NCBI GenBank assembly: GCA_021159365.1
Contig: JAGGRY010000011.1
Location: 1-53,407, forward strand
Reading direction: 5' to 3'
From: Nitrososphaerota archaeon
GTDB lineage: Archaea; Thermoproteota; Nitrososphaeria_A; Caldarchaeales; Wolframiiraptoraceae
DNA length: 53,407 bases
Shown here: in pieces, positions 1,072-30,381 of the stretch
Layout of the letters: the number at the start of each line of letters is the position of its first letter
How positions within the stretch are numbered: the stretch's first letter is position 1
Notes under the pieces: generated by a model
The model's input: only the letters and a program-made list of their open reading frames with translations
What the model was told of the DNA's origin: nothing
The model's database searches: none
Translations under genes and position numbers: made by a program

Positions 1072-2041
1072 AGAGATAAGTTATGCTGAGGCTTTAAACG
1101 AGGCTTTGATAGAAGAGATGAGAAGAGACGATAGAGTGATAGTTTTCGGGGAAGACGTCGGAGTATTCGGAGGAGTCTATAAAGTGACTAAGGGATTATT
1201 GGAAGAATTTGGGCCGGAGAGAGTCTTGGATACACCGATCTCAGAAGCGGCCATAGCTGGAACAGCGATCGGAGCCGCTTTGATGGGACTTAGACCTGTG
1301 GCCGAGATAATGTATGTAGATTTCTTGACTCTCGCCACTGACATGCTCATAACCCATGCGGCGAAATTGAGATTTATGAGTGGAGGTCAAGTGAAGCTTC
1401 CAATGGTTATTAGAACTCAATATAGTTTGGGGAGAGCTCATGGATGTCAACACAGTCAATTTCTAGCTGCATGCTTCCTCCAATCACCTGGGATAAAAGT
1501 CGTCTTGCCTGGAACCCCGAAAGATGCCAAGGGCTTATTGAAGTCCGCTATAAGGGATGATGATCCCGTGCTCTTCATAGAATCAGGAGTTCTCTATAGG
1601 TTGAAGGGACCTGTTCCTGAAGATGAGTATTTGATACCTTTGGGTAAGTGTGATGTTAAGCGTGAGGGTGAGGACGTTACGATAGTCGCTGTGGCTAGAA
1701 CCGTCACCGAGGCTTTGAAGGCAGCCGATAAGCTCGCAGAAGAAGGAATAAGCGCGGAGGTAATAGACTTGATGACTATTCAGCCGATGGATTATGACAC
1801 GATAGTTAAATCAGTTATGAAGACGAATAGACTCGTCATAGCTGATGACAGCGTTAAGACATGCGGTATATCGGCCGAGGTCTCAGCATACATCAGCGAG
1901 TTCGCCTTCGACTATCTAGATGCCCCGATAATTAGGGTGAACTCTCCGCCGCTACCGATACCATTCTCACCGCAGCTTGAGAAGCAGTATATGATTGATT
2001 CTGATAAGATCGTTGACGCCGTTAAAAGGTTGGTGAAGTGA
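1055..2041 (+). CDS. 2-oxoacid dehydrogenase complex E1 component, beta subunit
   Basis: The N-terminus SYAEALNEALIEEMRRDDRVIVFGEDVG is typical of E1-beta/transketolase-like C-terminal subunits. The start is ambiguous: ATG 1034 or ATG 1055, both overlapping the E1-alpha 3' end. Confidence 0.85.
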   Translation: MASGVREISYAEALNEALIEEMRRDDRVIVFGEDVGVFGGVYKVTKGLLEEFGPERVLDTPISEAAIAGTAIGAALMGLRPVAEIMYVDFLTLATDMLITHAAKLRFMSGGQVKLPMVIRTQYSLGRAHGCQHSQFLAACFLQSPGIKVVLPGTPKDAKGLLKSAIRDDDPVLFIESGVLYRLKGPVPEDEYLIPLGKCDVKREGEDVTIVAVARTVTEALKAADKLAEEGISAEVIDLMTIQPMDYDTIVKSVMKTNRLVIADDSVKTCGISAEVSAYISEFAFDYLDAPIIRVNSPPLPIPFSPQLEKQYMIDSDKIVDAVKRLVK

Positions 2042-3159
2042 AGATGGCGGAACTCAAGATGCCTAGACTTGATCCAGTGATGGAAGAAGGGAGGATCGTG
2101 GAGTGGTTGAAGAAGGAGGGCGATGACGTAAGCAAGGGAGAAACCGTGTTGGTCGTTGAAGGTGAAAAGACCACCTTCGAGGTGGAATCGCCATATACGG
2201 GCAAGCTCGTCAAGATCTTGAAGAGATCCGGTGAAGTTGTCAAGGTTGGAGAAGCTATAGCTGTAATAGAGGAAGTCGAGGCTCCATCTCCTCCATCTAA
2301 GGTTAAGCCTAGGATTAGGATAAAGGCGAGTCCTGTCGCGAAAAAGCTTGCAAAAGAATTGGGGATATCCTTAGAAGAGGTTGAGGGAACTGGTCCAGGC
2401 GGTAGGATAACAAAAGAAGATGTCCTCAAATACGCAAAGGAACGTGGGATCGCGATTCCAGCAATCGCTCCTAAAGCCGAGGTCATCGAGGAGAAGGTTA
2501 AGAGGGTTCCATTTGCCGGAGTTAGAAGAGCTATAGCTAGAAGACTTAGCCCAGGGTTCCATGAAGCTTTACCAGTCGCCTTAACCATGGAGTTCGACGC
2601 TGATAAACTTCTTGAGCATAGAAAGGTTAAGGGTAAGCCATCATTCACGGCATACGCTGTTAAGGCCGTGGCTTTAGCCTTGAAGAAGCATCCGGAGATA
2701 AATCTAACTCTCGAAGGAGATGAGTTAATCTATCATGAATCCGTGAACATAGCTGTTGGAGTCGATACTCCTAAGGGCTTGATGGCTCCAGTCGTTAAAG
2801 ATGCCGATAAGAAGACATTAAAGGAATTGACCGAGATAATCGACGACTTCGCCGAGAGAGGTAGAAGAGGAGAGATAACGGTCGCCGAGCAATCCGGCCA
2901 CAGCTTCACCGTCACAAACCTCGGAGCACTTGGAGTAATTTATTTCACTCCAATAATCAATCCACCTGACGCGGCGATTCTCGCCCTCGGAACCGTTAAG
3001 CCCCAACCATATCTCACTGAAGAAGGTGAAGTAAAGTTGAAGCACGTCGGCTATCTAACTTTAGTCTTCGATCATAGACTGGTAGATGGGGCGCCGGCCG
3101 CCAGATTCCTCCAAACCATAAAGAGCCTCCTCGAGAACCCGGAGGCACTCGAACCTTGA
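2038..3159 (+). CDS. Dihydrolipoamide acyltransferase (E2) with lipoyl, subunit-binding and catalytic domains
   Basis: Lipoyl domain with candidate lipoyl-Lys in VVEGEKTTFEVESP. Peripheral subunit-binding domain ASPVAKKLAKELGISLEEVEGTGPGGRITKEDV. Catalytic motif DHRLVDGA. GTG 2038 overlaps the E1-beta stop (GTGA); the alternative start is ATG 2044. Confidence 0.85.
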   Translation: MKMAELKMPRLDPVMEEGRIVEWLKKEGDDVSKGETVLVVEGEKTTFEVESPYTGKLVKILKRSGEVVKVGEAIAVIEEVEAPSPPSKVKPRIRIKASPVAKKLAKELGISLEEVEGTGPGGRITKEDVLKYAKERGIAIPAIAPKAEVIEEKVKRVPFAGVRRAIARRLSPGFHEALPVALTMEFDADKLLEHRKVKGKPSFTAYAVKAVALALKKHPEINLTLEGDELIYHESVNIAVGVDTPKGLMAPVVKDADKKTLKELTEIIDDFAERGRRGEITVAEQSGHSFTVTNLGALGVIYFTPIINPPDAAILALGTVKPQPYLTEEGEVKLKHVGYLTLVFDHRLVDGAPAARFLQTIKSLLENPEALEP

Positions 3160-4178
3160 AAGCTGCTTACTCAGTTCCAGGTAGTGGAGTTGTTAAGCTT
3201 AGAGAGGTTGAAGTTCCCAAAATTGATGATGGCGAATTATTGGTGAAAATGAGGGCTGTTGGAATCTGTGGAACTGATCTGGAAAAGGTATACGGTAAAC
3301 CTATAACTCCCCCGATGCTGGGCCATGAAGTTGTCGGAGACATAGTTGATTCTAGGGCTGAGGGCTATGTAGTTGGAGAGAGGGTATTCGCTCATCATCA
3401 TGTCTCTTGTGGAAAATGCTACTACTGTTATCATGGAGATTATACCATGTGCCCGCTCTTCCTGAAGACGACGATAATTCCATGCGGATTCGCAGAATAC
3501 TTCAAGGTTCCTAGAATAAATGTCGAGCGGGGAGCAGTTCTCAAGATCCCGGATCACGTCAGCGACGAAGAAGCTATTTTCATCGAACCGGTTGGATGCG
3601 CGTTAAAGGGAGTCAAGAGAAGTGGATTTAAGCCTGGGATGAGCGTCTCGATAACCGGGGTTGGCCCCATGGGAGCGATCTTCATAAAACTCTTCAAGGC
3701 TTTCGGAGCATCCTTCATAGCGGCCGCAGATCTGGTCCCTTTCAGGATAGACTTAGCTAAGAGAATCGGAGCTAACGTTGCCTTAAATCCGAGGGAGGAA
3801 GACTTCGCCGAAGCATGTAAAAGAGAGACTGATGGGAGGGGGGTGGATATAGCTGTATTGGCGACTCCTTCCGTTAAAGCCCTGCCCACGGCCTTAAGCA
3901 CTCTGAGGAAGGGGGGAGTGCTCTTGATATTTGGAGCTCCAGAGAAGGGTGAGAAAAGTTTGCTTGACTTCTCATACATCTTCTTAAGAGAGATAAGCAT
4001 AATCACCAGCTATTCAACCTCAGAACTTGAAACAAACCTAGCCCTACGGTTAATATCAAGTGGAGTTATCAGATTCAGCGATCTAATAACTCACAAGTTT
4101 AAGCTAAGCGAGATCGACGAAGCATTCAAGGTTGCCCACGATCCCCATAAGAGCATGAAGGTAATGATAGTCGCCTAA
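3156..4178 (+). CDS. Zn-dependent medium-chain dehydrogenase/reductase (alcohol/polyol/threonine dehydrogenase-like)
   Basis: GHEVVGDIV catalytic-Zn motif, structural-Zn Cys cluster CGKCYYCYHGDYTMC and Rossmann GVGPMG. The TTG start overlaps the E2 stop, so it is probably co-transcribed. Confidence 0.75.
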   Translation: MKAAYSVPGSGVVKLREVEVPKIDDGELLVKMRAVGICGTDLEKVYGKPITPPMLGHEVVGDIVDSRAEGYVVGERVFAHHHVSCGKCYYCYHGDYTMCPLFLKTTIIPCGFAEYFKVPRINVERGAVLKIPDHVSDEEAIFIEPVGCALKGVKRSGFKPGMSVSITGVGPMGAIFIKLFKAFGASFIAAADLVPFRIDLAKRIGANVALNPREEDFAEACKRETDGRGVDIAVLATPSVKALPTALSTLRKGGVLLIFGAPEKGEKSLLDFSYIFLREISIITSYSTSELETNLALRLISSGVIRFSDLITHKFKLSEIDEAFKVAHDPHKSMKVMIVA

Positions 4179-4289
4179 TTTCATCGACAAAATATCACGT
4201 GACCCTAGATTTACTCTAAAGAAGTGTCTCCATCTTCGTGAAGACCGACATGGTGGTGTTCTAGCGATTCTCAAAACTCTTTAGAGAAC

Positions 4290-5327
4290 TTAGAATCTTA
4301 TCGCTACCTTCAGTTCTTTTCCTTGCCTTATCCTGTTAAACATCTCGACTATCTCATCGAGCCTCGCTTCCCTAGTTATCAATCTCTTTAACGGGAGCTT
4401 CTTAGACTCTATTATCCTCATGGCTCTTAGAACGTCTTGCGGAGTTAGGTGGAATGATCCTTGAATAGTTAATTCTCCATAATGGATCATGTAAGTGTCG
4501 AAGGATGCCTTAGTTCCAGATGGGCATCCGCCGAATAGGAGGACCTTTCCACCCTTCCTAGCTAGACTTAGACTTTGTTCCCATGTCTCGACCCTTCCAA
4601 CAGCCTCTATCACCACATCCGCTCCAAGTCCATTAGTCTCTTCCTTAACTCTTTCGACCGCGTTCTCATCCCTGTTATTTATCGTGACATCTGCTCCAAG
4701 TTCTTCCGCAAACCTCAATCTATCGGGACTTATATCGATGACTATAGTCTTCTTAGATCCAGAGATCTGCGCCAAGAGCAAATGCATTAATCCTATTGGG
4801 CCTGCTCCGATTATCGCTACAGTGTCTCCAAGGTCTATGCGTATGAGCCTTTGGCCTCTAACGACGCATGAAAACGGTTCAAGTAGCGCTGCCTCAACAG
4901 GCTCAACATCTTCAGTCACATGATACAGATTAAATCTAGCTACCCTTGGAGGAACTTTGACATATTCAGCATAAGCTCCATTGACCGTGAAGCCTATTAT
5001 CTGATCCATTAAGCTCTCGCATAGATTTGGTTTGCCGAGCTTGCAATAGATGCAGTGACCGCATGGAGCAGAGTTAACGGTGACTATCCTGTCTCCAGGT
5101 TTAACCCAATCCACTCCCTCGCCAACTTCCTCAACTATTCCAGTGTATTCATGGCCCATTATCAGCGGAGGCTTCGTAAACGGATATCCCCTTAGATACG
5201 TCTTTAGATCTGTTCCACATGTTAAGGCCACTGAGGTCTTGACAAGAATCTCTCCAGGTCCAGGTTCCGGCTTCTCAACATCCTCAACTCTCAAATCTCC
5301 AGGACCGTAGAAGACCGCCGCTCTCAA
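4290..5327 (-). CDS. Zn-dependent medium-chain dehydrogenase/reductase (sorbitol/threonine dehydrogenase-like)
   Basis: GHEYTGIVEEVG, CGHCIYCKLGKPNLC and GAGPIGL motifs; 345 aa. Confidence 0.75.
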   Translation of the reverse strand: MRAAVFYGPGDLRVEDVEKPEPGPGEILVKTSVALTCGTDLKTYLRGYPFTKPPLIMGHEYTGIVEEVGEGVDWVKPGDRIVTVNSAPCGHCIYCKLGKPNLCESLMDQIIGFTVNGAYAEYVKVPPRVARFNLYHVTEDVEPVEAALLEPFSCVVRGQRLIRIDLGDTVAIIGAGPIGLMHLLLAQISGSKKTIVIDISPDRLRFAEELGADVTINNRDENAVERVKEETNGLGADVVIEAVGRVETWEQSLSLARKGGKVLLFGGCPSGTKASFDTYMIHYGELTIQGSFHLTPQDVLRAMRIIESKKLPLKRLITREARLDEIVEMFNRIRQGKELKVAIRF

Positions 5328-5434
5328 TTAAATTGCACCTCGATTATAGCGTTTAATGGGTTAAGATAAGTTTTCGGTCTCCCATTTCTTCGGCGAAACA
5401 GCTCATTCGCCAGTCCACGTAGGATTCTTTCTTA

Positions 5435-6118
5435 TCATTCGAGGTCTAGAACGATTTTTCCCTTTTGTCCATAATCCTTCTTGAAGAACTTTCTCATCTT
5501 TTCAACGAGCTCTGTTGGTATTCTACCTATCTCACTCTTTCCGAGGAGCATTATCCAGAAATACGTCCTAGCTTCTTCTTCGACTAGGATCGCTACATTA
5601 TATGCTTCCTCTAAGCTCTCACCAACCGCCACAACTCCATGATTCCTTATCAAAGCCGCTACTCCATCCTCTCCGAGAGCTTTCACCACTTCATCCGCTA
5701 AGTCCTTGGTTCCAGGTAAGACGAAGCCTGTCACGGGAACTTCATGCCCCACCGCCGAGGCGAACTCAACCGTTAAGACCGGTATCGGCTCATTTATGAC
5801 AGATAGCGTCATAGCGTATGGCGAATGCGTGTGAATCACCGCGTTCACATCATCTCTAGCTTTATAGATCCCGAGATGCATGCTCGTCTCAATGGTGGGC
5901 TTTAGATCTCCTCTCAAAACATTTCCCTCAAGATCCATGAGGAGGAGATTTTCGGGCTTGAGAGCCGTCTTTTCGAATCCACTCGGAGTTATCAGCACTT
6001 TTTCACGGTCAAATCTTACGCTTAGATTTCCCCAAGTCCCAGCCATAAGCCTATACTGGAAGCACTTCCTCGCAACTTTTATCAGCTTTTCCCTTAGTTC
6101 ATATTCGGACAACTTCAT
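5435..6118 (-). CDS. Class II aldolase/adducin family protein (fuculose-1-P aldolase / ribulose-5-P 4-epimerase / MtnB-like)
   Basis: GNLSVR, metal-ligand region VIHTHSPYAMTLS and NHGVVAVGESLEEA are typical of the family. Confidence 0.75.
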   Translation of the reverse strand: MKLSEYELREKLIKVARKCFQYRLMAGTWGNLSVRFDREKVLITPSGFEKTALKPENLLLMDLEGNVLRGDLKPTIETSMHLGIYKARDDVNAVIHTHSPYAMTLSVINEPIPVLTVEFASAVGHEVPVTGFVLPGTKDLADEVVKALGEDGVAALIRNHGVVAVGESLEEAYNVAILVEEEARTYFWIMLLGKSEIGRIPTELVEKMRKFFKKDYGQKGKIVLDLE

Positions 6119-6187
6119 CTAACTTGATGAATTAAGCCATGTAATTAACCTTACCAGTTGAGAGTTAATGATCTAGTATCGATCTGC

Positions 6188-6637
6188 TCATTCCTTACGC
6201 TCTCGATAAATTTCTGGAGCCCCTTTAATGCATAAGAAGATCAGCGGCTCATCATGATCGTTGAAGAACTGATGTATCTCATTCGATTCTATGAATATGG
6301 CATCCCCCTCTCCTATTTCCACTTCTCTCCGATCACCATCTTTGATCGTCAAAAGTCTTCCTCTACCCTTTAGGACAAGTATCTCATGCTCATAGATGTG
6401 TTGATCCGGCGGGGTGGATTCATGCGGCTCAATCGTGAAGATTCTCATATGGAATTTCTTGGCGCCCTGTTTATCGGTTATCAAGTATTGAGCCCATATC
6501 CTCTTCCCCTTATAGGTATCCTTTGCAACTGGAACCCTCTCAACATCTCTAACATTCACCATATACATGACGTGAATAACTTGGATTCGGTTTCTTATCT
6601 CTTTTACTCTATAAGCCGCTAGCGCTTTCCTTATCAA
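6188..6637 (-). CDS. Cupin domain protein
   Basis: Cupin motifs around PPDQHIYEHEILVLKGRG and GDAIFIESNEIHQF. The true start may be an internal Met (about 6568 or 6562). Confidence 0.6.
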   Translation of the reverse strand: MIRKALAAYRVKEIRNRIQVIHVMYMVNVRDVERVPVAKDTYKGKRIWAQYLITDKQGAKKFHMRIFTIEPHESTPPDQHIYEHEILVLKGRGRLLTIKDGDRREVEIGEGDAIFIESNEIHQFFNDHDEPLIFLCIKGAPEIYRERKE

Positions 6638-12068: not shown

Positions 12069-13459
12069 ACTTCAATTCTCTAGAGGCCATAATCCCAATA
12101 GATGGCAGATATCGTGGAAGAATCGGCGAGACATCGAGATACTTCTCCGAATATGCTTTGATCAAGGAGAGGCTGAGGGTGGAGATAGAGTTCTTAATCA
12201 AAGTCATCGAGACTTGCAGCGAGGAGATCAGGTTTAAGCTTCCACATGATTGGAAGGATAGATTGTTGAGAATTGTTGAAGACTTTAAGCTAGAAGATGC
12301 TGAGAGAATTAAGGAGCTTGAGAAGATTTTAGGCCACGACGTCAAGGCCCTCATGAACTATCTCAGAGAGAGGCTTCATCAAATCGGATTAGAGCCGCTG
12401 TCATCATATATTCATCTTGGATTAACTTCAGATGACGTAAATAACTTGGCATATTCGCTCCTCCTCTCACGTTTTAGAGATGAAGTCCTCATACCGAATC
12501 TAATCGAGGTGATCAAGACAGTATCGGGGAAGGCTAGGGAAAATCTTGAAACGATCATGCTTGGTAGAACTCATGGAGTTCCAGCTGTTCCGACGACATT
12601 TGGAAGATTTCTCTCAAACTACGCATATAGGTTGGCTAGAATCGCTTATGAGCTGGCGTCGTTCAAGTTTCCTGGAAAGCTCGGCGGAGCCATTGGAGAT
12701 CACTCCGCCTTGAAGTTCACTTATCCTAAAGTTGATTGGATAGAGTTTAGCAAGGGTTTCGTAGAATCTCTTGGACTCGAATATACTCCAGCTTCAACCC
12801 AGATACTTCCACATGATAAGATCTCTGAATTCTTAGGCAAGATCTCGATCCTAGACGCTATCATATCGAATCTCTGTAGAGATCTCTGGCTCTTATCATC
12901 TCTCGGACTACTGGTCTTCGGGAGAAGAGTAGGCGAGGCGCATTCATCCACAATGCCTCACAAATCTAATCCACTACATCTCGAAAACGCTGAGGGAGCA
13001 TGCGACCTGGCTTCAAGCATAGCTTCATTCATGGCCCGTAGACTCATCTCAAGCAGACTTCATAGAGATCTCTCAGACTCCATTATCAAGAGATTCTATG
13101 GGCTTCCGTTGACCCTAACCATAATCGGGTTCAAGAGCTTGATGGAAGCTTTCAAGAGAATGAACGTTTTGAAGGATAAGATGAGGCTTGAAGTCGAGAG
13201 CCATCCCGAATCCTTGGCCGAAGCCTATCAAGTATATCTCAGAGCGCATGGAGTTGAAGATGCGTATGAACTCGTTCAGGGAGCTCTCGATAAAGGTTGG
13301 AGCGAGGTCTTAAAGGAGATCAAGGATAGGGGTCTTCCAGATGAGATCGTTAAGAGACTTAAAGAAGTCGAGCCTACTAAATATGTTGGAGAGGCTGTTA
13401 GAATCGGATCCATGCTTTTAGATGAGGTTGAGAAGATCTTAAGGAAGATCGGGAAATGA
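12065..13459 (+). CDS. purB: Adenylosuccinate lyase
   Basis: Fumarate-lyase signature SSTMPHKSNP; 464 aa; 4-nt overlap with purA. Confidence 0.9.
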   Translation: MNFNSLEAIIPIDGRYRGRIGETSRYFSEYALIKERLRVEIEFLIKVIETCSEEIRFKLPHDWKDRLLRIVEDFKLEDAERIKELEKILGHDVKALMNYLRERLHQIGLEPLSSYIHLGLTSDDVNNLAYSLLLSRFRDEVLIPNLIEVIKTVSGKARENLETIMLGRTHGVPAVPTTFGRFLSNYAYRLARIAYELASFKFPGKLGGAIGDHSALKFTYPKVDWIEFSKGFVESLGLEYTPASTQILPHDKISEFLGKISILDAIISNLCRDLWLLSSLGLLVFGRRVGEAHSSTMPHKSNPLHLENAEGACDLASSIASFMARRLISSRLHRDLSDSIIKRFYGLPLTLTIIGFKSLMEAFKRMNVLKDKMRLEVESHPESLAEAYQVYLRAHGVEDAYELVQGALDKGWSEVLKEIKDRGLPDEIVKRLKEVEPTKYVGEAVRIGSMLLDEVEKILRKIGK

Positions 13460-14353
13460 GTCTTCTCTCACACCTTTAGCCATAAGCTCACATCTCATGA
13501 CCTCAAACGATTTACCTAAATTCTCCATCAGTAGATTGATTTTCCCTTCTTCAGCAACGGCTATGACGCATCCACCTCCACCGGCTCCAGTGAGCTTCGC
13601 TCCAAAAGCCCCAGACTTCATACATAATTCGATCACATCTTCTATCTCCTTCGAAGATACCCCGACCCTTCTCAGAAGCTCCTGATTTCTCAGCATAAGT
13701 TTTCCGATAGATTCCACGTCTCTAGCTCTCAGCGCATCCACCGCTTCCCAGATTATCTGCTCAGCGTCTTCCAAGATCTTCTCGAACTCTTCCCCATGAG
13801 CATCCTTGAATTCCTTAACCTTCTTGACCAAATCTCCAGTTCTCCTAGCCTTTCCGGTATTGATTATTAAGATCTCATCTAGATTGAAATCCATGCTTCT
13901 AAATCCCTTGGAACGCGTATAGATTCCCCCGCCGCCATAGGTCGCGATCGTGGTATCGATTCCAGAGGGTCTATAATGAACTAAGCTTTCACCTATGTGA
14001 GCCGCCCTCATGATCAATTCTAGATCAAGTTCTCCCTTCAGCAGCAGAGATGTGGCCGCCGCGGACGCCACCGAGACGGAAGCCGATGAACCAAGACCTA
14101 CACTTTGAGGTATAGATGACCAGATCCTGAGATTTATTCCACCAGAGTATTCGAGTTCCTCGGCTATGTAGGCTGAAGCCCTAATGGCAGGATTCTCCCC
14201 AGTCCAGCCGTCGAGAATTATTCCCCGATCTGATCTCTCTACTTCTGCATAAGCTCTCAAACCGATGGCTGAGACGATGGCGGGCTTATCATAGACGACG
14301 AAATGCTCTCCAAATAAGATGACTTTACCTGGCGCAGAGGCGCATGCCTTCAT
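13439..14353 (-). CDS. mvk: Mevalonate kinase (GHMP kinase)
   Basis: PGKVILFGEHFVVY N-terminus, GHMP motif GLGSSASVSVA and C-terminal KLTGAGGGGC. Start taken at ATG 14353 (MKACASAPGK); the longer ORF begins at 14377. The 3' end overlaps purB convergently. Confidence 0.8.
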   Translation of the reverse strand: MKACASAPGKVILFGEHFVVYDKPAIVSAIGLRAYAEVERSDRGIILDGWTGENPAIRASAYIAEELEYSGGINLRIWSSIPQSVGLGSSASVSVASAAATSLLLKGELDLELIMRAAHIGESLVHYRPSGIDTTIATYGGGGIYTRSKGFRSMDFNLDEILIINTGKARRTGDLVKKVKEFKDAHGEEFEKILEDAEQIIWEAVDALRARDVESIGKLMLRNQELLRRVGVSSKEIEDVIELCMKSGAFGAKLTGAGGGGCVIAVAEEGKINLLMENLGKSFEVMRCELMAKGVREDSFPDLP

Positions 14354-14437
14354 CGTTAACCTTTTATGACCTAACATTTATTTATCTTAATCTCGATTCA
14401 TGGCCGCTCGCTAAGTCATCAAGATGTCAAATACTCT

Positions 14438-15046
14438 CTACTCAACTCTCTTTAAGCCTGAGAGTCTCAATAATCCTTCATGCAGCTCAAACCATATGTT
14501 ATGATATGATTGAACATCGACGCCGGATAGGTATTCGATTTCTCCACGCATCACGAGATTCAGCGCCCTATTAAGCCTCGTAATATACGTCTTCAATATT
14601 GGAAGCACTTTAGAGAGTTTTTCAAGAACATCTACTGTTTTCCTGTGAAGTTCGCCTAACTCTCTGATTATCGCTAAATCGTATTCTGGATCACTGTGAT
14701 CATTTGGAACGAGCATTCCTCCCTCATTCTTCACCTGCCATCTCGTGACGAGATCCTTGAACCACGTATTCAGCTCCTCAAACTCCTTACAATATGAAAG
14801 AACTTCCTCTCTTCTACCTGAACTCTCCAACACTTCTCGTCTAAGCCTCTTCATCTCCTCTCGTCCAGCATGCTCTATCTGCCATTGATCATCAACTCTT
14901 CTCACAAATCCCTTTCTCAGCAAATCATTTAAAACTTCACGAATTTTCTCTTTATCGATCTCTATGTTATTTTCGATATCTTTCTGGAGAGAGGATCTAA
15001 ATATATCGAGATAATTTAGGATGAGAAATTCATCCCAATTAACCAC
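14438..15046 (-). CDS. Putative winged-helix transcriptional regulator with helical C-terminal domain
   Basis: The N-terminal segment IREVLNDLLRKGFVRRVDDQWQI looks like a wHTH recognition helix plus wing. The gene is divergent from the PTS EI-like gene. No family was identified with confidence. Confidence 0.4.
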   Translation of the reverse strand: MVNWDEFLILNYLDIFRSSLQKDIENNIEIDKEKIREVLNDLLRKGFVRRVDDQWQIEHAGREEMKRLRREVLESSGRREEVLSYCKEFEELNTWFKDLVTRWQVKNEGGMLVPNDHSDPEYDLAIIRELGELHRKTVDVLEKLSKVLPILKTYITRLNRALNLVMRGEIEYLSGVDVQSYHNIWFELHEGLLRLSGLKRVE

Positions 15047-15150: not shown

Positions 15151-15897
15151 ATGGTTGATGGTGGAATGCTGAAGCTAAAGGGTTTACCGGCTTCTCCTGG
15201 AATAGCTATAGGGAAAGCATTTGTATATGGTGGTCATGAAGAGTTTGACGTCGCGAATTTTTCAGGAGACGCGGATGCGGAAGTTTCCAAGTTCAAAAAG
15301 GCGTTAGAGGAGACTAAGTCGCAGGTGGCGAAGCTTAGGGATAAGGTTGAGAGGGAGATCGGGAAGGATGAAGCGGCGATCTTTGAGGCCCATCTAATGA
15401 TCTTAGAGGATCCTACATTCACCGATAAGGTCGTGAAATATATCAAGGAAGATCGCTTATCGGCTGAGAAGGCGGTTGAGAAGGCTTCAGAAGAACTCAT
15501 AGAGATGTTCAAGGCCATGGAGAGCGAATACTTTAGATCGAGGGCGGATGATATCAAAGATCTTCGGAATAGGATCATTAACAATCTCAGAGGAAGAAAG
15601 CAGTCGCTAAGCTTAGATCTCAAGGAGCCTTCAATAGTTTTCGCCAAAGAACTTCTCCCTTCAGATACTGCTAGGATGGATAAGAAGAAGGTGCTCGCCT
15701 TTGTGACCGAGATCGGGGGAATCACCTCGCATGCGGCGATAGTGGCAAGAGCTCTAAGGGTTCCAGCGGTAGTGAGCGTGAGCGGCTTGATGAAAAACGT
15801 GAGAGATGGTGTTACGGCGATCGTGGATGGATATAAGGGCTTGGTTATAATAGATCCTGTTGAAGAAGTTCTACGAGAATATTCGCAGAGAAAATAG
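15151..15897 (+). CDS. PTS Enzyme I N-terminal half only (HPr-binding domain plus phosphohistidine swivel domain); lacks the PEP-binding domain
   Basis: LKGLPASPGIAIGKAFVY, EAAIFEAHLMILEDP and the swivel-His motif GGITSHAAIVARALRVPAVV match roughly residues 1-250 of bacterial PtsI. The ORF stops at 248 aa. An alternative start is ATG 15166. Confidence 0.8.
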   Translation: MVDGGMLKLKGLPASPGIAIGKAFVYGGHEEFDVANFSGDADAEVSKFKKALEETKSQVAKLRDKVEREIGKDEAAIFEAHLMILEDPTFTDKVVKYIKEDRLSAEKAVEKASEELIEMFKAMESEYFRSRADDIKDLRNRIINNLRGRKQSLSLDLKEPSIVFAKELLPSDTARMDKKKVLAFVTEIGGITSHAAIVARALRVPAVVSVSGLMKNVRDGVTAIVDGYKGLVIIDPVEEVLREYSQRK

Positions 15898-15905
15898 TTC
15901 CAAAA

Positions 15906-16181
15906 CTATTCCTTCTCTCCAAATTTATTCTTGATGAGAGTCAGTAGGGTGTTTAAGGCTTCCTCGGCATCCTCGCCTTCTGCGATTATCGTTATCTCGT
16001 CACCGCATTCTGCTCCAAGCGATAAAACTCCAAGAATGCTCTTGGCATCCGCGATCTTATCGTCTTTCTTAACCTTGAGTTTAGCTTTAAACTTCTTAGC
16101 TGTCTGAACGAATACCGCCGCTGGCCTGGCATGTAAACCAACCTTGTTCGTTAATACGGCGCTTGCTTGTAGAATCTTCAT
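15906..16181 (-). CDS. ptsH: Phosphocarrier protein HPr
   Basis: 91 aa. Active-site His in NKVGLHARPA and a Ser46-like region DAKSILGVLSLG. Confidence 0.85.
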   Translation of the reverse strand: MKILQASAVLTNKVGLHARPAAVFVQTAKKFKAKLKVKKDDKIADAKSILGVLSLGAECGDEITIIAEGEDAEEALNTLLTLIKNKFGEKE

Positions 16182-16380: not shown

Positions 16381-16401
16381 TTTAAAAACAACGTTTTTAA
16401 A
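16381..16401. promoter_or_regulatory. Perfect 9-bp inverted repeat (TTTAAAAAC-N3-GTTTTTAAA) in the divergent HPr/EIIC intergenic region
   Basis: Read directly from the sequence. It lies about 63-83 nt upstream of the EIIC ATG (16464), which is preceded by AGGAGGAGGA. It may be an operator or paired TATA-like elements. Confidence 0.4.
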
Positions 16402-16463: not shown

Positions 16464-17849
16464 ATGGGTTGGATTGAAGTTTTATCGGCAGCTGTTCAGG
16501 GATTCTTGAATCTCGGAGCTTCTGTCGCCATCCCGATAATCTTGTTCTTCATAGCTCTTGGATTTAGAGTTAAGCCTGGTAGAGCTGCTAGATCAGCTAT
16601 AACGATCGCCGTGGGTTTCGTCGGCATCTTCCTATTGATAGGATTCTTCATGGATACGATAGCTCCCGTTGCCAAGATGCTCGTTGAGAGAACTGGAATC
16701 CAGCTAGTGGCGATAGACGTTGGGTGGCCTTCAGCCGCCGCGATCGCCTTCGGCTCGGTCTTGGGAACTTTGATAATCCCTGTAACCGTTGTCGTGAATC
16801 TAATCTTACTAGCCGCCAGGGTGACTAGAACCTTAGACATTGATGTCTGGAATTACTGGCACTTCGCATTCGTCGCGAGCCTGACATACATAGCGACTGG
16901 AGACTTCTGGCTTGGATTATTAGCCGGGATAGCGATGTTCGTAATCATTTTGCCGATCGCCGACTGGTCCGCTCCAAAGGTCCAAGAGATGCTCGAAACT
17001 CCTGCCATCTCTCTACCGCACGGATTCTCGGCTGTATATTTCGCGTTAGCGTATCCGGTGATGAAGCTGTTTCAGAAGATCCCCGGGCTCTGGAACATCA
17101 AGGCTGATCCGGAGACTATTAGGAAGAAATTTGGATTAATCGGTGAAAGCCCGGTTCTTGGAGCGATAATAGGGTTCGCCCTATCTGTTGCCGCTGGGGC
17201 CGACTATGTCACGGTCGCTAAGACCACGGTTGGCATGGCTGCTGTAATGGTGATCCTACCTAGAATGGTCAGGATCCTAATGGAGGGATTAGTTCCCTTA
17301 GCAGACGCAATTAGAGAGACGTTCGTCAAGAGATATGCCGGAAAGAGGGAACTATACATTGGATTGGATTCCGCGATCGCCATAGGACATCCCGTAGCCA
17401 TAGCAGCTTCCTTGATCCTCATACCGATATTCATCGTAGAATCCCTAATACCTGGAAACAAGATATTGCTTCTTGCAGACCTCCCAGTCATACCATTCAT
17501 GGTATGTATGACCGTTCCGTTATTCAATTACGACACCGTTAAGGTCATAATAAACATGGCTATCTGGAATATCGTCGGCCTACTCTTGGGAAGCATGATC
17601 ATAGACGTCTACACGGCCACCGCGAAATCCGTCGGATTCCCATTACCGAAAGGAGCCGTCTTCATCTCAAGCATATGCGATGGAACTAATCCGTTGACTT
17701 GGTTGCTCATCCAGCTCGGCAGGATAGGTTGGAGACCACTCGCCTATGGAGCCCTAATAGTGGTGATCATAGTATTCATAGTAATAGGTTACATTGCCGA
17801 GAAAAGGAGAGCGGAGAGAGCAGCTGAGGCCGCCGCTTCAACCGGTTAA
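16464..17849 (+). CDS. PTS EIIC permease, galactitol (Gat) family
   Basis: 461-aa polytopic membrane protein. The N-terminal region and motifs (VAIDVGWPSAAAIAFGS, LDIDVWNYWHF, ISLPHGFSA, GESPVLG, MVILPRMVRILMEGLVPLA, LIGLDSAIAIGHP) parallel E. coli GatC as I recall it. Confidence 0.8.
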   Translation: MGWIEVLSAAVQGFLNLGASVAIPIILFFIALGFRVKPGRAARSAITIAVGFVGIFLLIGFFMDTIAPVAKMLVERTGIQLVAIDVGWPSAAAIAFGSVLGTLIIPVTVVVNLILLAARVTRTLDIDVWNYWHFAFVASLTYIATGDFWLGLLAGIAMFVIILPIADWSAPKVQEMLETPAISLPHGFSAVYFALAYPVMKLFQKIPGLWNIKADPETIRKKFGLIGESPVLGAIIGFALSVAAGADYVTVAKTTVGMAAVMVILPRMVRILMEGLVPLADAIRETFVKRYAGKRELYIGLDSAIAIGHPVAIAASLILIPIFIVESLIPGNKILLLADLPVIPFMVCMTVPLFNYDTVKVIINMAIWNIVGLLLGSMIIDVYTATAKSVGFPLPKGAVFISSICDGTNPLTWLLIQLGRIGWRPLAYGALIVVIIVFIVIGYIAEKRRAERAAEAAASTG

Positions 17850-18196: not shown

Positions 18197-18688
18197 GTGA
18201 AGGCTACGAAGGTCTATTACACCTTCATCGACTGCGATGATAGCATAGAGACCCTTAAAAGAGTAAGTGAATATCTTTACAATAAAGGCCTTGTAAAGGA
18301 GACATACGTTGAATCTCTGTTAAAGAGGGAGAAAGAATTTCCAACAGGTCTTCAAAGCGAGAAAGGAGTCGGAGTCGCAATACCTCACGCCGACATTGAG
18401 CACGTCTTAGAGGAGGCTTTCGTCGCGATATTTCCAACAAAGACCTTACATTTCCATAAGATGGATGAACCTGATAAGGAGATCCCCGTCGATCTGGTTC
18501 TCTTATTAGTCGTTAAATCTACTCAAGGCTATATGAAATTCCTATCAGATCTGGCCTCAACTATAAATGATGAAAAATTCGCCGAGCTTGTGGAGAGCAG
18601 AAAGACGGAAGAGATAATAGATTTCCTAGTCAAGAACATTCTAGAGAAACATTTCAAGGTGGAGCAAGTCGAGAGAGTAAAACTCTGA
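18197..18688 (+). CDS. PTS EIIA component (PTS_EIIA_2, mannitol/fructose/galactitol type)
   Basis: 163 aa. Phosphorylatable His in GVGVAIPHADIEH. The GTG start is 1 nt after the EIIB stop. Confidence 0.75.
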   Translation: MKATKVYYTFIDCDDSIETLKRVSEYLYNKGLVKETYVESLLKREKEFPTGLQSEKGVGVAIPHADIEHVLEEAFVAIFPTKTLHFHKMDEPDKEIPVDLVLLLVVKSTQGYMKFLSDLASTINDEKFAELVESRKTEEIIDFLVKNILEKHFKVEQVERVKL

Positions 18689-18768: not shown

Positions 18769-19494
18769 TTATGGTCTCTCATGCCTCTTTTTGCTCTCAA
18801 GAATTAATGGATGAACTATTTGATGGATGTATTCGACAAACTCAGATTCAGGCATCTTTGTGAATGCAGTTACGACGCAGTTTCTAGTTAATCCCATGAC
18901 CTTATTCGTTCCAGTGACCGTGAACACGATATACCATATGTTTCCATGGCTTAGATACTCCTCATACAGTCCGGAATCCTTTAGAGATTCTCCATAGAGG
19001 GCTAATTTATCAACAGCTGGAAAATCTAGGTTGTCGAAGTATATCACCTTCGTCGCCTCGGGATTTCTTTCATGAAATTCCCTCATGACTTCTGGAGATA
19101 TTCTAGCCTCGGTTAAAGCCTTGTATGAGAGATAGAGGTGATGGGAGAGAATCGATGCGACGGCGTTTGCGAAATGCTTTTCTTGCACGACCGTTAGTAG
19201 GATCAGGTCTTCGAGTTTCCTGAAGATTATTCTAGCCTCAGTTGTCTTCAGGATTGGAACCTTTCTCCCTCTCTGGTTTATCAGAATTATCTTATCCTTG
19301 CTGAAGGTTCCCTCAAGCATGTCATCCTTCAGATCCAAGTCTTTCACCTCGGTCATGAGCTCAAAGTCCATCCCTTCCTCGCTCCGCTCGTCAACGACCC
19401 TATAGCCTCTAAGCTTATCCGCTATCTCTTCTAAGCTTGTATCGACCCTTATCTCGAAGATCTTCGCCGCGAGGGGCATCTCGATCCCTTTCAC
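18769..19494 (-). CDS. Hypothetical protein (no family recognised)
   Basis: 241-aa ORF with balanced composition, lying 27 nt downstream of the GNAT gene on the same strand. Confidence 0.5.
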   Translation of the reverse strand: MKGIEMPLAAKIFEIRVDTSLEEIADKLRGYRVVDERSEEGMDFELMTEVKDLDLKDDMLEGTFSKDKIILINQRGRKVPILKTTEARIIFRKLEDLILLTVVQEKHFANAVASILSHHLYLSYKALTEARISPEVMREFHERNPEATKVIYFDNLDFPAVDKLALYGESLKDSGLYEEYLSHGNIWYIVFTVTGTNKVMGLTRNCVVTAFTKMPESEFVEYIHQIVHPLILESKKRHERP

Positions 19495-19521: not shown

Positions 19522-20034
19522 TTAGGATCTCTGGCTGAGCTTCTTCACAGCTCTATAGGCATCTCTTCCAGCTCCATAATAGTTCTCCAGTTTTTCGATG
19601 AATTCATAGCCCATGTTTCTATAGAGGTTTATTGCCGGCTGATTATCCACCGCGACTTCAAGGATTATCTCTTCACATCCCTCTCTCTTGAAGGAGTCTT
19701 CGATGACGTTCATCAAGAGCCTTCCAATGCCTCTTCCCCTAAGCTCAGGTCTAACGTTTATCGTATAGATCCTTCCAACTCTTCTCTTCCCAGATCTCTC
19801 AACTCTTCCCACGACGAATCCTAGAATGACATGATCTCTAACCGCTTTGAGGAAGATCGTCCTCTCATCTTTAAGCAGCCACCTATAGATCCACTTACTA
19901 TACGATTCTCTTCCAAAGCATTTGACCTCAATCTCATAGATCTCATCCAAGTCCTCCATCGCCGCCTTCTCGATCCTCACCTTAGCCTCCATATGCTTCC
20001 AAAGAGAGTATCTATCGGCTATCCTTATATTCAT
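19522..20034 (-). CDS. GNAT family N-acetyltransferase (RimI/Ard1-like)
   Basis: Acetyl-CoA binding motif RGRGIGRLLM, EIILEVAVDNQPAINLYRNMGY and YYGAGRDAY. An alternative start is ATG 19992 (MEAKVRIEKA). Confidence 0.75.
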   Translation of the reverse strand: MNIRIADRYSLWKHMEAKVRIEKAAMEDLDEIYEIEVKCFGRESYSKWIYRWLLKDERTIFLKAVRDHVILGFVVGRVERSGKRRVGRIYTINVRPELRGRGIGRLLMNVIEDSFKREGCEEIILEVAVDNQPAINLYRNMGYEFIEKLENYYGAGRDAYRAVKKLSQRS

Positions 20035-20064
20035 GGCCTAGAATCTCCTCTCGGTGCGAGTCAT

Positions 20065-20838
20065 TTGAAGGAACTCGCAGTCGTTAAGCTCGGAGGCTCT
20101 ATCATAACCGTTAAGGATAAGCCGTTTACTCTTAGGGGAAAGGTTCTCGAGAGGATTGGATCCGAGCTTTCAGGTCTGGAAGAGTCTTTGATCCTCGTTC
20201 ATGGGGGTGGATCATACGCTCATCCAGTTGCGAAGAAGTATTCAGTCTCGGAGGGTTATAGAGATGAAGAGCACTTGAGGGGGTTTATGGAGACCTCGAT
20301 CGCGGTTCGGAGATTAAACCTCGAAGTCGTTGAGAAACTTATTGAAGGCGGATTAAGATGTATAGGCATACCATCCTCAACAATATTCTCCACAAGTTCT
20401 GGAAGAATCCTCACATGCAGTCTTGAGCCCATATTCTTATCCCATAGAGTTAAGATTGCTCCAGTCACATGTGGAGATGTTGTATTCGACCGCGAGCTAG
20501 GTTTCACCGTTTTGTCGGGAGATGCTATTGCATCATATCTTGCGGTCAGGCTCAGGGCTAAGAGATTGATTTATGCAATAGATCTAGATGGAATCTATGT
20601 TAAAGATAGGGTTACAGGAGAGGTGAAGGTCGCTGAAGAGCTTAAACCTGGTATGAGGCTTGAACCTCTCGGAAAGATCAAGGAAGATGTCACCGGAGGA
20701 GTTATGGGAAAACTTGAAGAAGGATTTAGGGCGGCTGAGAACGGCGTCGAGGTCATGATAGTCAATGGATTAGCTGAAGGTAGGATAAGGGATGCTGTTT
20801 TAGGTAAGAGCGTTCTTGGAACAATTCTTAAAGTTTAG
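20065..20838 (+). CDS. Isopentenyl phosphate kinase (amino-acid kinase family)
   Basis: VVKLGGSIITVKDKPF and LVHGGGSYAHP motifs. The track ORF begins at 19831 but its first 78 codons run antisense through the GNAT gene; TTG 20065 is the first plausible start after it. Confidence 0.75.
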   Translation: MKELAVVKLGGSIITVKDKPFTLRGKVLERIGSELSGLEESLILVHGGGSYAHPVAKKYSVSEGYRDEEHLRGFMETSIAVRRLNLEVVEKLIEGGLRCIGIPSSTIFSTSSGRILTCSLEPIFLSHRVKIAPVTCGDVVFDRELGFTVLSGDAIASYLAVRLRAKRLIYAIDLDGIYVKDRVTGEVKVAEELKPGMRLEPLGKIKEDVTGGVMGKLEEGFRAAENGVEVMIVNGLAEGRIRDAVLGKSVLGTILKV

Positions 20839-28807: not shown

Positions 28808-29197
28808 TCACCTATAGATTCTCAGAAGTTCTCCATCAACCTCCACTAAGTCTCCATTTCTTATCCTCGATATGTCTATTCTGTCGATGGTTGGGATCTC
28901 AGCGATTATCGCTCCAACCGCGATTATCGGTTCACATCTAATATTCACCATCGCTTTTGGAGCTATCCCTCTCTTCTTCAATCTCAGGATAATATATGAT
29001 CCGACGGTCGATCCCTTACCGTAGGGAAATACAAGTATCTTTCCGGCAATAGATTTGCCCTCAAGCTCGTGGCCTCTCTCGACGATCTCTCCGGTCATCG
29101 GATCGATTCCTCCATAGAAGCTTATAGGTTGATTTGAGACTAGGGCTTCACCCTTTGCCCATCCACTCCATATTATCCTACCCTTGAGCGCGATCAT
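28808..29197 (-). CDS. Aconitase X swivel-domain protein (DUF126); phosphomevalonate dehydratase small subunit-like
   Basis: 129 aa. ISFYGGIDPMTGEI and ILVFPYGKGSTVGSY are typical of DUF126/AcnXS. It overlaps the upstream DUF521 gene by 4 nt. Confidence 0.75.
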   Translation of the reverse strand: MIALKGRIIWSGWAKGEALVSNQPISFYGGIDPMTGEIVERGHELEGKSIAGKILVFPYGKGSTVGSYIILRLKKRGIAPKAMVNIRCEPIIAVGAIIAEIPTIDRIDISRIRNGDLVEVDGELLRIYR

Positions 29198-30381
29198 TTC
29201 ACGGCCAGCTCCACGAGTCCTTCAATAGACATGAACCTAACCTTTAAGCCATTTAAGTTTCTTGAAAACCATGCTCCCTTAGCGGAGTTTGTAGCTATGG
29301 ATCTTATTCCGAGATCTTTTATCGGAGCGACTATTGGACATGTATCGCATATCACTTTAACCCCAAGTCTTTCCAATTTCTCGATTATGCCGAGCTTCTC
29401 TCCAAGATTCTTCGCGGCCCTTGAAGTGAATATCCAAGTCTTCTTCTTAACGGCTCTACCGTTAAGCAGTTCTAAGAATATTATCAGCTCTCTTATGGAT
29501 GAGTGCGGGCATCCGATGAAGATGAGATCTGGTTCAACATCATCGTCATTTAGCTCATCATAGACTTCTCTAACCTCATCAAGTCCTACCTCATATTTTT
29601 CAGAAGCACTCATCTTCGGGTTTAGCTTGGCTTCAGGAGTTATCCCCTCGATGTGGAAGAGGGGTATTCCGCCTGAGCATGCGAGCGCTGCCCCTAAGAG
29701 CTTTAGTTCTTCATCCGAGATTAACTTGATTCCCTTGAATAGTGGTATCTTGTCTCCCGCTAATCTTCCAACAAGAAATCCGAGTGCTGCATATTCATAT
29801 CCACTTAAGGGTTTAGGAATCTTCACCTCGATCTCAGGACGCCTATTTTCATCTAGGTGTAGTCCATAGAGCGGGGTTCTTCCAGCTATCGCCGCGGCCA
29901 GGGCGCTTGGCCCACCTTCCCTATTTGTCCTCGCCCCTAGAACTGAGTTTGCGTAGATTATTGCTGAGCTCTCACTCCAAGCTATGTGATCCCCGAATCT
30001 CGGCCTATTTCCAGACAAGTAAGGCGTGCAAGTCAGAGTTTGCCTTATCCCAAGCTTTAGGTAGGCTTTGATCACCTTGAGCTGCTTTTCGGCGAAATCT
30101 TCTGGAAATCCGAGTTCTCTCCACCTTTCCAAATCTATTCCGCATGGGTTTAGGGTTGTTGGAACCCTGACTTTTCCATCTTCAGCTAGCTTCTCGATGA
30201 ACTCTAATCCCTCATCTCCCAAACTTTTGTAAGATACTCCAGAGATCTGAGCGCTCCTTATTTCTATCATTTTCTCGGCGTCGTAGATCTTTCCAAGGGC
30301 CACGAGGATCTCCATAGATTTCTGCGCTGCATATCCATATTCTCCCTTCAACATCTCCTCTTCTTCTTTAGTTAGATACAT
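29194..30381 (-). CDS. Aconitase X catalytic-domain protein (DUF521); phosphomevalonate dehydratase large subunit-like
   Basis: 395 aa. MYLTKEEEEMLKGEYG...IRSAQISGVSY N-terminus typical of DUF521/AcnXL, with conserved Cys residues for an Fe-S cluster. Confidence 0.75.
   Translation of the reverse strand: MYLTKEEEEMLKGEYGYAAQKSMEILVALGKIYDAEKMIEIRSAQISGVSYKSLGDEGLEFIEKLAEDGKVRVPTTLNPCGIDLERWRELGFPEDFAEKQLKVIKAYLKLGIRQTLTCTPYLSGNRPRFGDHIAWSESSAIIYANSVLGARTNREGGPSALAAAIAGRTPLYGLHLDENRRPEIEVKIPKPLSGYEYAALGFLVGRLAGDKIPLFKGIKLISDEELKLLGAALACSGGIPLFHIEGITPEAKLNPKMSASEKYEVGLDEVREVYDELNDDDVEPDLIFIGCPHSSIRELIIFLELLNGRAVKKKTWIFTSRAAKNLGEKLGIIEKLERLGVKVICDTCPIVAPIKDLGIRSIATNSAKGAWFSRNLNGLKVRFMSIEGLVELAVK

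Follow-up and report, generated by a model that had tools for sequence, protein, structure and literature searches.

We describe a phosphotransferase system (PTS) in which Enzyme I (EI) is reduced to the half that carries the phosphoryl group. It is encoded in a stretch of 53,407 nucleotides from a Nitrososphaerota archaeon (contig JAGGRY010000011.1), hereafter the window, where the open reading frame (ORF) at 15151-15897 corresponds to the N-terminal domain of EI (EIN) and ends before the barrel that binds phosphoenolpyruvate (PEP). A PTS is defined by PEP as its phosphoryl donor, and it is this link to PEP that underlies its sensing of the glycolytic state. We propose that the present system is independent of PEP and charged by ATP: EIN would load HPr, and the donor that draws on ATP would be a pyruvate phosphate dikinase (PPDK), itself devoid of its barrel (PPDK-N), which is co-clustered with EIN in sister lineages. 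We give this reading a probability of about 0.45. The novelty lies in the front end of the system, where energy is coupled in another way; the PTS itself is known. If a conserved and selected PTS does work with a barrel-less EI, then the relay made of HPr and of the Enzyme II (EII) components can be coupled to another source of energy.

An Enzyme I that stops before its barrel

The elements at issue are the following.

15151-15897, forward strand: stand-alone EIN, 248 aa; HPr-binding alpha subdomain and swivel phospho-His domain of Enzyme I, no PEP-binding barrel
15730-15732, forward strand: CAT codon of His194, the phospho-accepting histidine in GGITSHAAIVARA, as read from the sequence
15898-15905, no strand: 8-nt spacer that separates the stop codons of the convergent genes EIN and HPr

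A Pfam scan of the ORF, for which the NCBI start call is Met6 (giving 243 aa), returned the HPr-binding alpha-helical subdomain PF05524 (PEP-utilisers_N) at residues 10-131 (E=1.3e-35) and the mobile swivel phospho-His domain PF00391 (PEP-utilizers) at residues 158-230 (E=9.8e-24). The C-terminal PEP-binding TIM barrel, PF02896, had no match in it. A preliminary description of the window had seen here the HPr-binding and swivel-His domains of PtsI and nothing else, and the scan agrees. Indeed, the PTS_I profile TIGR01417 aligns with the ORF over positions 1-241 of 565 only, and the cutoffs for a whole PtsI protein are not reached (224.9 vs 341.7 bits for TIGR01417; 177 vs 824 for NF008382). 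The best match among solved structures is an engineered construct, the 248-aa EIN of Thermoanaerobacter EI (5woy, E=9e-58), while alignments to full-length EI structures end at about residue 243 of 573. His194 sits in a GGxTSH motif and is aligned with His189 of solved EI. The stop codon of EIN ends at 15897 and that of the convergent HPr gene starts at 15906, a distance that the preliminary description had read correctly, and this gap of 8 nt leaves no room for a C-terminal domain after EIN. The same layout is found in loci L007-L012 and L017. We read the ORF as an EIN that stands alone and is maintained, the half of Enzyme I that carries the phosphoryl group; it lacks the barrel, the feature that defines PtsI.

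A family of short Enzymes I under selection

Could this be a non-functional remnant or an artefact, that is, a truncated pseudogene, a frameshift or a misassembly? The NCBIfam whole-protein score, below the PtsI cutoff, is what such a remnant would give. Against it, five assemblies of independent origin (ENA, JGI, Logan) carry the identical protein with its genes in identical order, so that it is not an artefact of assembly or frameshift, and no error of this kind, which the preliminary description had named as its own possible undoing, was seen. Relatives with 85% identity display the layout of the window. A protein search gathered about 19 clusters of short EINs, all of 241-250 aa and comprising only PF05524 and PF00391, with identities from 98% down to about 48%. 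When 15 members of the family are aligned, their C-terminal ends fall within a few residues of one another and His194 is invariant (15/15). When the window is compared with its 85% relative, EIN has a dN/dS of 0.126, HPr of 0.028, EIIC of 0.064, EIIB of 0.048 and EIIA of 0.049, values that point to purifying selection on all five PTS genes and to maintenance of the whole relay. With this, an invariant catalytic histidine and a convergent HPr gene abutting the stop codon, a remnant or artefact is most improbable; this explanation is effectively refuted. The earlier opinion that the rest of the relay looks functional (the catalytic His, His, His and Cys of the whole relay, EIN included, are intact) and that simple decay is unlikely has thus gained in strength.

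The NCBI labels of the sister metagenome-assembled genomes (MAGs) are Nitrososphaeria, Thaumarchaeota or Bathyarchaeota archaeon. One MAG, DRN65, holds EINs of both the window's 90% cluster and the 85% cluster (RLG06108.1 and RLG07547.1; DRN65_05890 and DRN65_03295), which suggests that the bin is mixed or that two strains were binned together.

Where does the short family come from? A scan of a genome collection with the EIN alignment gave, among the matches listed, 80 full-length EIs, 78 of them bacterial and 2 archaeal, the genome of the window not being among those listed; the 80 loci (1.29 Mb) were used as a control. In both archaeal cases EIN and the C-terminal domain (EIC) are contiguous: L019, in a Thermoprotei MAG, is 51% identical to the window ORF, and L020, in a Nitrososphaerota MAG, 45%. 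A neighbour-joining tree of the EIN region makes the core short family monophyletic and sister to L019 and L020, the whole being nested within a wider assemblage of full-length EIs from bacteria. A second short group (P0018 and P0019) is more distant and branches just outside the core family. The simplest history suggested by this tree is that the barrel was lost once, with a long diversification afterwards. The active-site loop of the short family reads GG[IVM]TSHAAI[IV]AR, that of bacterial EI GG[KR]TSH[ST]AIMARS; the former seems nearer to the PPDK loop than the latter is, which is suggestive only, a hint.

The search for the missing barrel

The preliminary description had found no PEP-binding domain in the window. 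Here tblastn (E<=0.01), with the EIC domains of seven bacterial EIs, all of them complete, and of two archaeal EIs, two PPDK C-terminal domains (PPDK-C) and a PEP_hydrolase barrel as queries, likewise retrieved no barrel from its 53 kb, and Pfam models PF02896, PF01326 and PF09370 were absent among the 37 ORFs scanned, the largest or adjacent ones. Nor was a homologue of EIC or PPDK-C detected in 280 kb across 35 loci of the short-EIN family.

These results bear on a split Enzyme I, in which the barrel would be the product of a separate gene located elsewhere, joining EIN in trans to make an ordinary PEP-dependent PTS. Such split or frameshifted enzymes do exist. At the bacterial locus L101 an EIN ORF of 267 aa is followed, 166 nt downstream, by a 250-aa ORF with PF02896. 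Furthermore, the search for the barrel covered the 53-kb window, which leaves the rest of that genome as a possible site. The real case, however, has its barrel next door, whereas no separate PF02896 ORF adjoins EIN in the window, where HPr abuts its stop codon; 280 kb of family loci lack the domain as well, and the family regularly carries another candidate donor, PPDK-N, instead. In the protein search with the window ORF, all the matches with PF02896 also had the N-terminal domains, a result to be read knowing that the query is itself blind to barrel-only proteins. A split EI, the first of the options in the preliminary description, now looks improbable.

A second truncated enzyme, PPDK-N

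Around the short EINs a cluster recurs which associates a winged-helix protein of about 200 aa, EIN, HPr, a gat-type EIICBA and a protein of 536-552 aa made of PPDK_N and the mobile-His domain, our PPDK-N. The accessory genes of the sister EIICBA clusters vary, being either sgc-like (RPE, M42, BtpA) or TrpA/PALP-like. PPDK-N matches residues 5-530 of the PPDK of Clostridium symbiosum (E=1e-152), with the GGMTSHAAVVAR motif intact. All its members end in the linker helix, at the point where full-length PPDKs start the first strand of the barrel (WADEIRRLGVRANADTPE), and a short tail, EWAxKxGKxVP, replaces the latter. They constitute a clade of their own, with about 19 clusters, and pass NF004531, which is the short-PPDK model of NCBIfam (545 bits vs a cutoff of 456). 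As their nearest full-length relatives are archaeal PPDKs (63% identity), the truncation is probably independent of that of VadK, an actinobacterial protein of the same type which we discuss below.

The pairing of EIN with PPDK-N is observed in five lineages and in at least three gene orders (L001-5/L142; L006/L018/L104/L147/L148; L013; L144; L099/L100). P0007 and P0075 may form a sixth pair, as each of them comes from an NCBI contig of 4643 bp. A gene for the PPDK ATP-grasp domain, in contrast, is found in none of the 80 control loci with a full-length EI. In the pairing lineages, then, the two PEP-utilising enzymes are both without their homologous barrels. In L006 (7757-9377) PPDK-N is called as two ORFs, of 296 aa and 166 aa, perhaps because the gene is frameshifted or a pseudogene, perhaps because the sequence is in error.

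PPDK-N also occurs outside the PTS context, at L015 (10001-14238) as well as in L016, L132 and L134; there are no PTS genes within 10 kb of the L015 copy. Its neighbours there are two winged-helix paralogues (200 aa and 190 aa), a 608-aa swivel-His protein and three TIM barrels of the PEP_hydrolase type (PF09370). In the scan, the sole Pfam domain of the 608-aa protein is a C-terminal swivel-His domain, while a precomputed list also tags it as PF27448 Rph_4th. An orphan swivel-His protein standing beside PPDK-N fits the role of a charger, and this suggests that PPDK-N might be a general charger of such proteins.

A candidate route from ATP to sugar

What can an isolated EIN do? EIN constructs made in the laboratory fold and bind HPr, with which they exchange phosphate (PMC8295985). 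Phospho-EIN of Thermoanaerobacter was made with catalytic amounts of full-length EI together with HPr and PEP (PMC8295985); as the preparation needs full-length EI, a stand-alone EIN does not charge itself. Devoid of barrel, EIN has no uptake of its own of phosphate from PEP, and because the isolated domain can be charged only via HPr~P coming from full-length EI, an external donor is needed. The conserved partner PPDK-N is itself without a PEP/pyruvate barrel, so that the implied donor is ATP, not PEP. The preliminary description had considered that another swivel-His enzyme might charge EIN from PEP. The evidence does point to an enzyme of this kind, in the sister lineages, and there the earlier proposal parts from ours: the partner is barrel-less, hence ATP rather than PEP, and it is absent from the window.

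What the analysis shows is which domains are present, that they are conserved and under selection, which genes are linked and how specific this linkage is. All the phosphotransfer steps, and ATP as the donor, we infer. In this scheme, which we hold tentatively, the donor in most lineages of the family would be the co-clustered, barrel-less, VadK-like PPDK-N. Its ATP-grasp site would carry out the nucleotide partial reaction of PPDK, where ATP, inorganic phosphate (Pi) and histidine give AMP, pyrophosphate (PPi) and His~P; the example of VadK shows that this reaction can persist in an enzyme without barrel. The phosphate would then reach His194 of EIN, either from histidine to histidine or by the ATP-grasp domain acting in trans on the swivel domain of EIN. 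From phospho-His194 it would go to His17 of HPr, then to His64 of EIIA, to Cys15 of EIIB and, via EIIC, to the incoming substrate, a sugar. The winged-helix protein of about 200 aa would regulate the cluster. The PEP intermediate, which in ordinary cells connects PPDK with EI, would have been excised from the route by deletion of both barrels, and the charger of the window lineage would lie elsewhere or have been replaced.

The reversibility of phosphate exchange between isolated EIN and HPr (PMC8295985) is also what one would expect of a relay or regulatory module, akin to DhaM or to PTS-Ntr. EIN would in that case take its phosphate from HPr~P and pass it on or buffer it, HPr being charged otherwise, possibly by PPDK-N directly. 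The DhaM model NF008478 matches the EIN ORF at 1e-40. Yet the ORF scores far higher against PtsI (225 bits) than against DhaM (138 bits), the scanned ORFs of the window contain no DhaK or DhaL (Dak1 and Dak2 domains: none in 37) and no fused HPr or EIIA-Man domains, and the presence in the cluster of a complete EIICBA transporter under purifying selection speaks of transport rather than pure regulation. A DhaM-like function, also envisaged in the preliminary description, is accordingly disfavoured, and we regard the relay as rather unlikely.

Difficulties, and the donor in the window lineage

Several observations weigh against an ATP-charged PTS fed by PPDK-N. To begin with, no PPDK-N was found in the 53 kb of the window. 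Its lineage (the window, L007-L012 and L017) has kept regulator, EIN, HPr and EIICBA, but never shows PPDK-N next to them, a mevalonate kinase being found at the position that PPDK-N has elsewhere. A degenerate probe was designed on the clade-specific tail of PPDK-N; of 10 loci whose core-clade PPDK-N has a complete C-terminus it recovered 9, with no false positive locally. In JGI metagenomes it detected 17 true PPDK-Ns, none of which is attributable to the window lineage. In Ga0190367, the sample that harbours the 85% relative L012, the PPDK-N match belongs to another EIN lineage (56% identity), and in Ga0187538, the sample with the exact window protein, the tail probe had no match. Besides, PPDK-N exists without PTS genes (L015/L016), and its link to the PTS is not exclusive. 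In a monophyletic family the linkage of EIN with PPDK-N may also come partly from shared ancestry. Finally, PPDK-N keeps its own swivel histidine, and we know of no precedent for a direct transfer from histidine to histidine between two swivel domains.

The GC content of the window is 45.7%, that of the PPDK-N loci 40-44%, 47% or 50-51%. The PPDK-N proteins at NCBI could not be linked to MAGs of the window lineage: P0086 (GCA_003660695.1) and P0005 (GCA_003660745.1) are in different MAGs, and the accession blocks differ. We infer nonetheless that the window genome carries a donor of the PPDK-N type outside the 53 kb. Candidates for this role are a PPDK-N that is divergent or located far away, a barrel encoded separately, and a full-length PPDK or PEP synthase (PEPS) that would act in trans.

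The last of these deserves a comment, because it would account for a lineage without PPDK-N. The barrel of a full-length PPDK or PEPS would phosphorylate the swivel domain of EIN from PEP. This domain is homologous to the swivel domains of PPDK and PEPS, related archaea do possess a full-length PPDK (the matches labelled Nitrososphaerota or Aigarchaeota, 63% identical to PPDK-N), and a gene for enolase, which supplies PEP, is located 3 kb away. Against this, a full-length PPDK or PEPS in the window genome is not in evidence, in a full-length dikinase the barrel works with the domain tethered to it in the same chain, and the retention of PPDK-N beside EIN in five lineages is left unexplained. 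Charging in trans from PEP therefore seems to us an unlikely explanation, and we keep to an ATP-charged EIN as the preferred one.

Relation to known systems

The E. coli DhaM possesses an EIN-like domain that gets its phosphate from HPr. It is, as here, a phospho-relay module without barrel, and its model NF008478 covers residues 17-232 of EIN; unlike the window ORF, DhaM is a three-domain fusion that serves DhaK and DhaL, and the ORF matches positions 256-470 of 473 only in this model, with no other domains. With PtsI (TIGR01417; Thermoanaerobacter and E. coli EI) the window ORF shares the EIN architecture, the histidine in GGxTSH and HPr and EII genes alongside, and it is about 45-50% identical to the EIN part of full-length EIs. 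It differs from PtsI in lacking the TIM barrel of about 320 aa, which binds PEP and dimerises, and in staying under the family cutoff. The engineered EINs (5woy, 1zym, 3eza; 248-259 aa) have practically the boundaries of the window ORF, whose truncation is by contrast natural, conserved and under selection. The split EI of L101 resembles it by its EIN-only ORF of similar length (267 aa), close to PTS genes, but there the PF02896 ORF follows at once, while no barrel was found in the archaeal family loci searched.

The closest parallel to PPDK-N is VadK (Rv1127c) of Mycobacterium tuberculosis, which is without pyruvate/PEP domain, autophosphorylates on His422 with ATP/Mg2+ and acts via protein partners (PMC13400623). 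These partners are methylcitrate-cycle enzymes and VadK is restricted to actinomycetes; the paper names no archaea, HPr or PTS (PMC13400623). PPDK-N of the sister lineages is likewise an ATP-grasp domain followed by a swivel histidine without barrel, and passes the VadK-type model NF004531. VadK is actinobacterial and has methylcitrate partners, whereas PPDK-N is nearest to archaeal PPDKs and is absent from the window. Should our proposal be true, it would assign a definite protein substrate to the histidine kinases of the VadK type, which would also have arisen a second time, independently.

Rifampicin phosphotransferase and related dikinases of the PEPS family without PEP barrel use ATP-grasp and swivel-His modules to phosphorylate acceptors other than pyruvate (PMC4844700). 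The modules are the same, and a protein tagged Rph_4th adjoins PPDK-N in L015. In that type, unlike the PPDK-N/EIN couple, a single chain holds all the modules and the phosphate goes to a small molecule instead of a PTS protein.

The searchable literature contains no description of an architecture combining barrel-less EI, barrel-less PPDK, HPr and EII; nor did it yield anything relevant on a truncated archaeal EI, on a PEP-independent PTS or on a PTS in Bathyarchaeota. In public annotation (NCBI, JGI) EIN is named 'phosphoenolpyruvate--protein phosphotransferase' and PPDK-N 'pyruvate, phosphate dikinase'. Both activities require the PEP/pyruvate barrels that are missing here. From the repeated pairing of EIN with PPDK-N follows a concrete hypothesis, open to tests in vitro with ATP, PPDK-N, EIN and HPr.

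A winged-helix companion

Divergent from EIN lies the gene of the winged-helix protein.

14438-15046, reverse strand: winged-helix protein of about 200 aa (202 aa), divergent from EIN; weak winged-helix signal, no Pfam model

Orthologues 42-60% identical adjoin EIN, PPDK-N or both in L001, L006, L013, L015, L018, L104, L115, L116, L124, L142, L144 and L147, and the protein is found in none of the 80 control loci. An AlphaFold2 (AF2) model (pLDDT 92) comprises an N-terminal winged helix similar to MarR/GntR and an all-helical C-terminal domain, for which there is no structural match in the PDB. The invariant polar residues of the family (N115, H117, D119, D123, R157, H182, E187, H189 and E190) look like a putative metal or ligand site. 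The homologues, uniformly of about 200-226 aa, show no fusions; for a distant one from a bacterium the gene context (dapA/RNase J) is unrelated. From the model, the protein is likely to be a regulator of the EIN cluster. It was also considered as a substitute for the barrel, which is ruled out by its MarR/GntR-like winged helix-turn-helix fold, the lack of fusions and the unrelated context of the distant homologue.

The rest of the PTS and its surroundings

The other components of the PTS are encoded just after EIN.

15906-16181, reverse strand: HPr phosphocarrier, 91 aa; PF00381 (E=1.2e-31), TIGR01003 96 bits vs a cutoff of 47.9; His17 in GLHARPA, Ser48 equivalent
16464-17849, forward strand: EIIC, permease of the Gat family of PTS, 461 aa; PF03611 (E=7e-68), TIGR00827 394 bits
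17887-18195, forward strand: EIIB, 102 aa; PF02302 (E=2.5e-9), NF007643 GatB-like 85.5 bits; Cys15 in VSCGTA
18197-18688, forward strand: EIIA_2, 163 aa; PF00359 (E=2e-24), NF007236 GatA-like; His64 in AIPH

The gat-type PTS is thus complete, HPr, EIIA_2, EIIB and EIIC-GAT all being encoded, and His17 of HPr, His64 of EIIA and Cys15 of EIIB are intact in the translations. A perfect palindrome, TTTAAAAACAACGTTTTTAAA, with arms of 9 bp and a loop of 3 nt, is located at 16381-16401, some 63 nt upstream of EIIC. A role as operator is improbable and the idea was dropped, as the palindrome is unconserved in the 85% relatives L012 and L017.

Directly after EIIA, at 18769-19494 on the reverse strand, comes an ORF of 241 aa whose position is kept in L008 and L012. 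It has no match in Pfam, NCBIfam or PDB sequences, and its single-sequence AF2 model (pLDDT 36) is unusable. It was considered as a possible hidden donor.

The gene content of the window is that of an ordinary archaeal chromosome, with ESCRT-III/Snf7, the archaeal mevalonate pathway, ribosomal proteins, an Rpb3-like subunit of RNA polymerase, the large subunit of primase and enolase. Genes of a modified mevalonate pathway surround the PTS (13439-14377, 19831-20838, 29194-30381 and 30395-31708): a mevalonate kinase, an AA_kinase resembling isopentenyl phosphate kinase, an AcnX-type dehydratase and a UbiD-like decarboxylase.

The region 94-6637, upstream of the PTS, encodes the E1alpha, E1beta and E2 components of a 2-oxoacid dehydrogenase, two Zn-dependent dehydrogenases, a class II aldolase (FucA/AraD-like) and a cupin. 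At L101 (3653-7900) Aldolase_II and E1alpha/E1beta/E2 are found directly before the bacterial split EIN/EIC pair. The occurrence of aldolase and E1-E2 genes near both PTS loci may point to a catabolic module that they share, acting on the transported polyol or ketose, or be a coincidence. In the window, the Zn-dependent dehydrogenases and the class II aldolase suggest a route via the phosphate of a polyol or ketose.

Finally, the window encodes at 47778-48740, on the forward strand, a 6-phosphofructokinase of the PFK-A family (PF00365), with 382 bits vs a cutoff of 253 for the NCBIfam ATP-PFK subfamily. Glycolytic kinases of the PFK-A type are uncommon in archaea.

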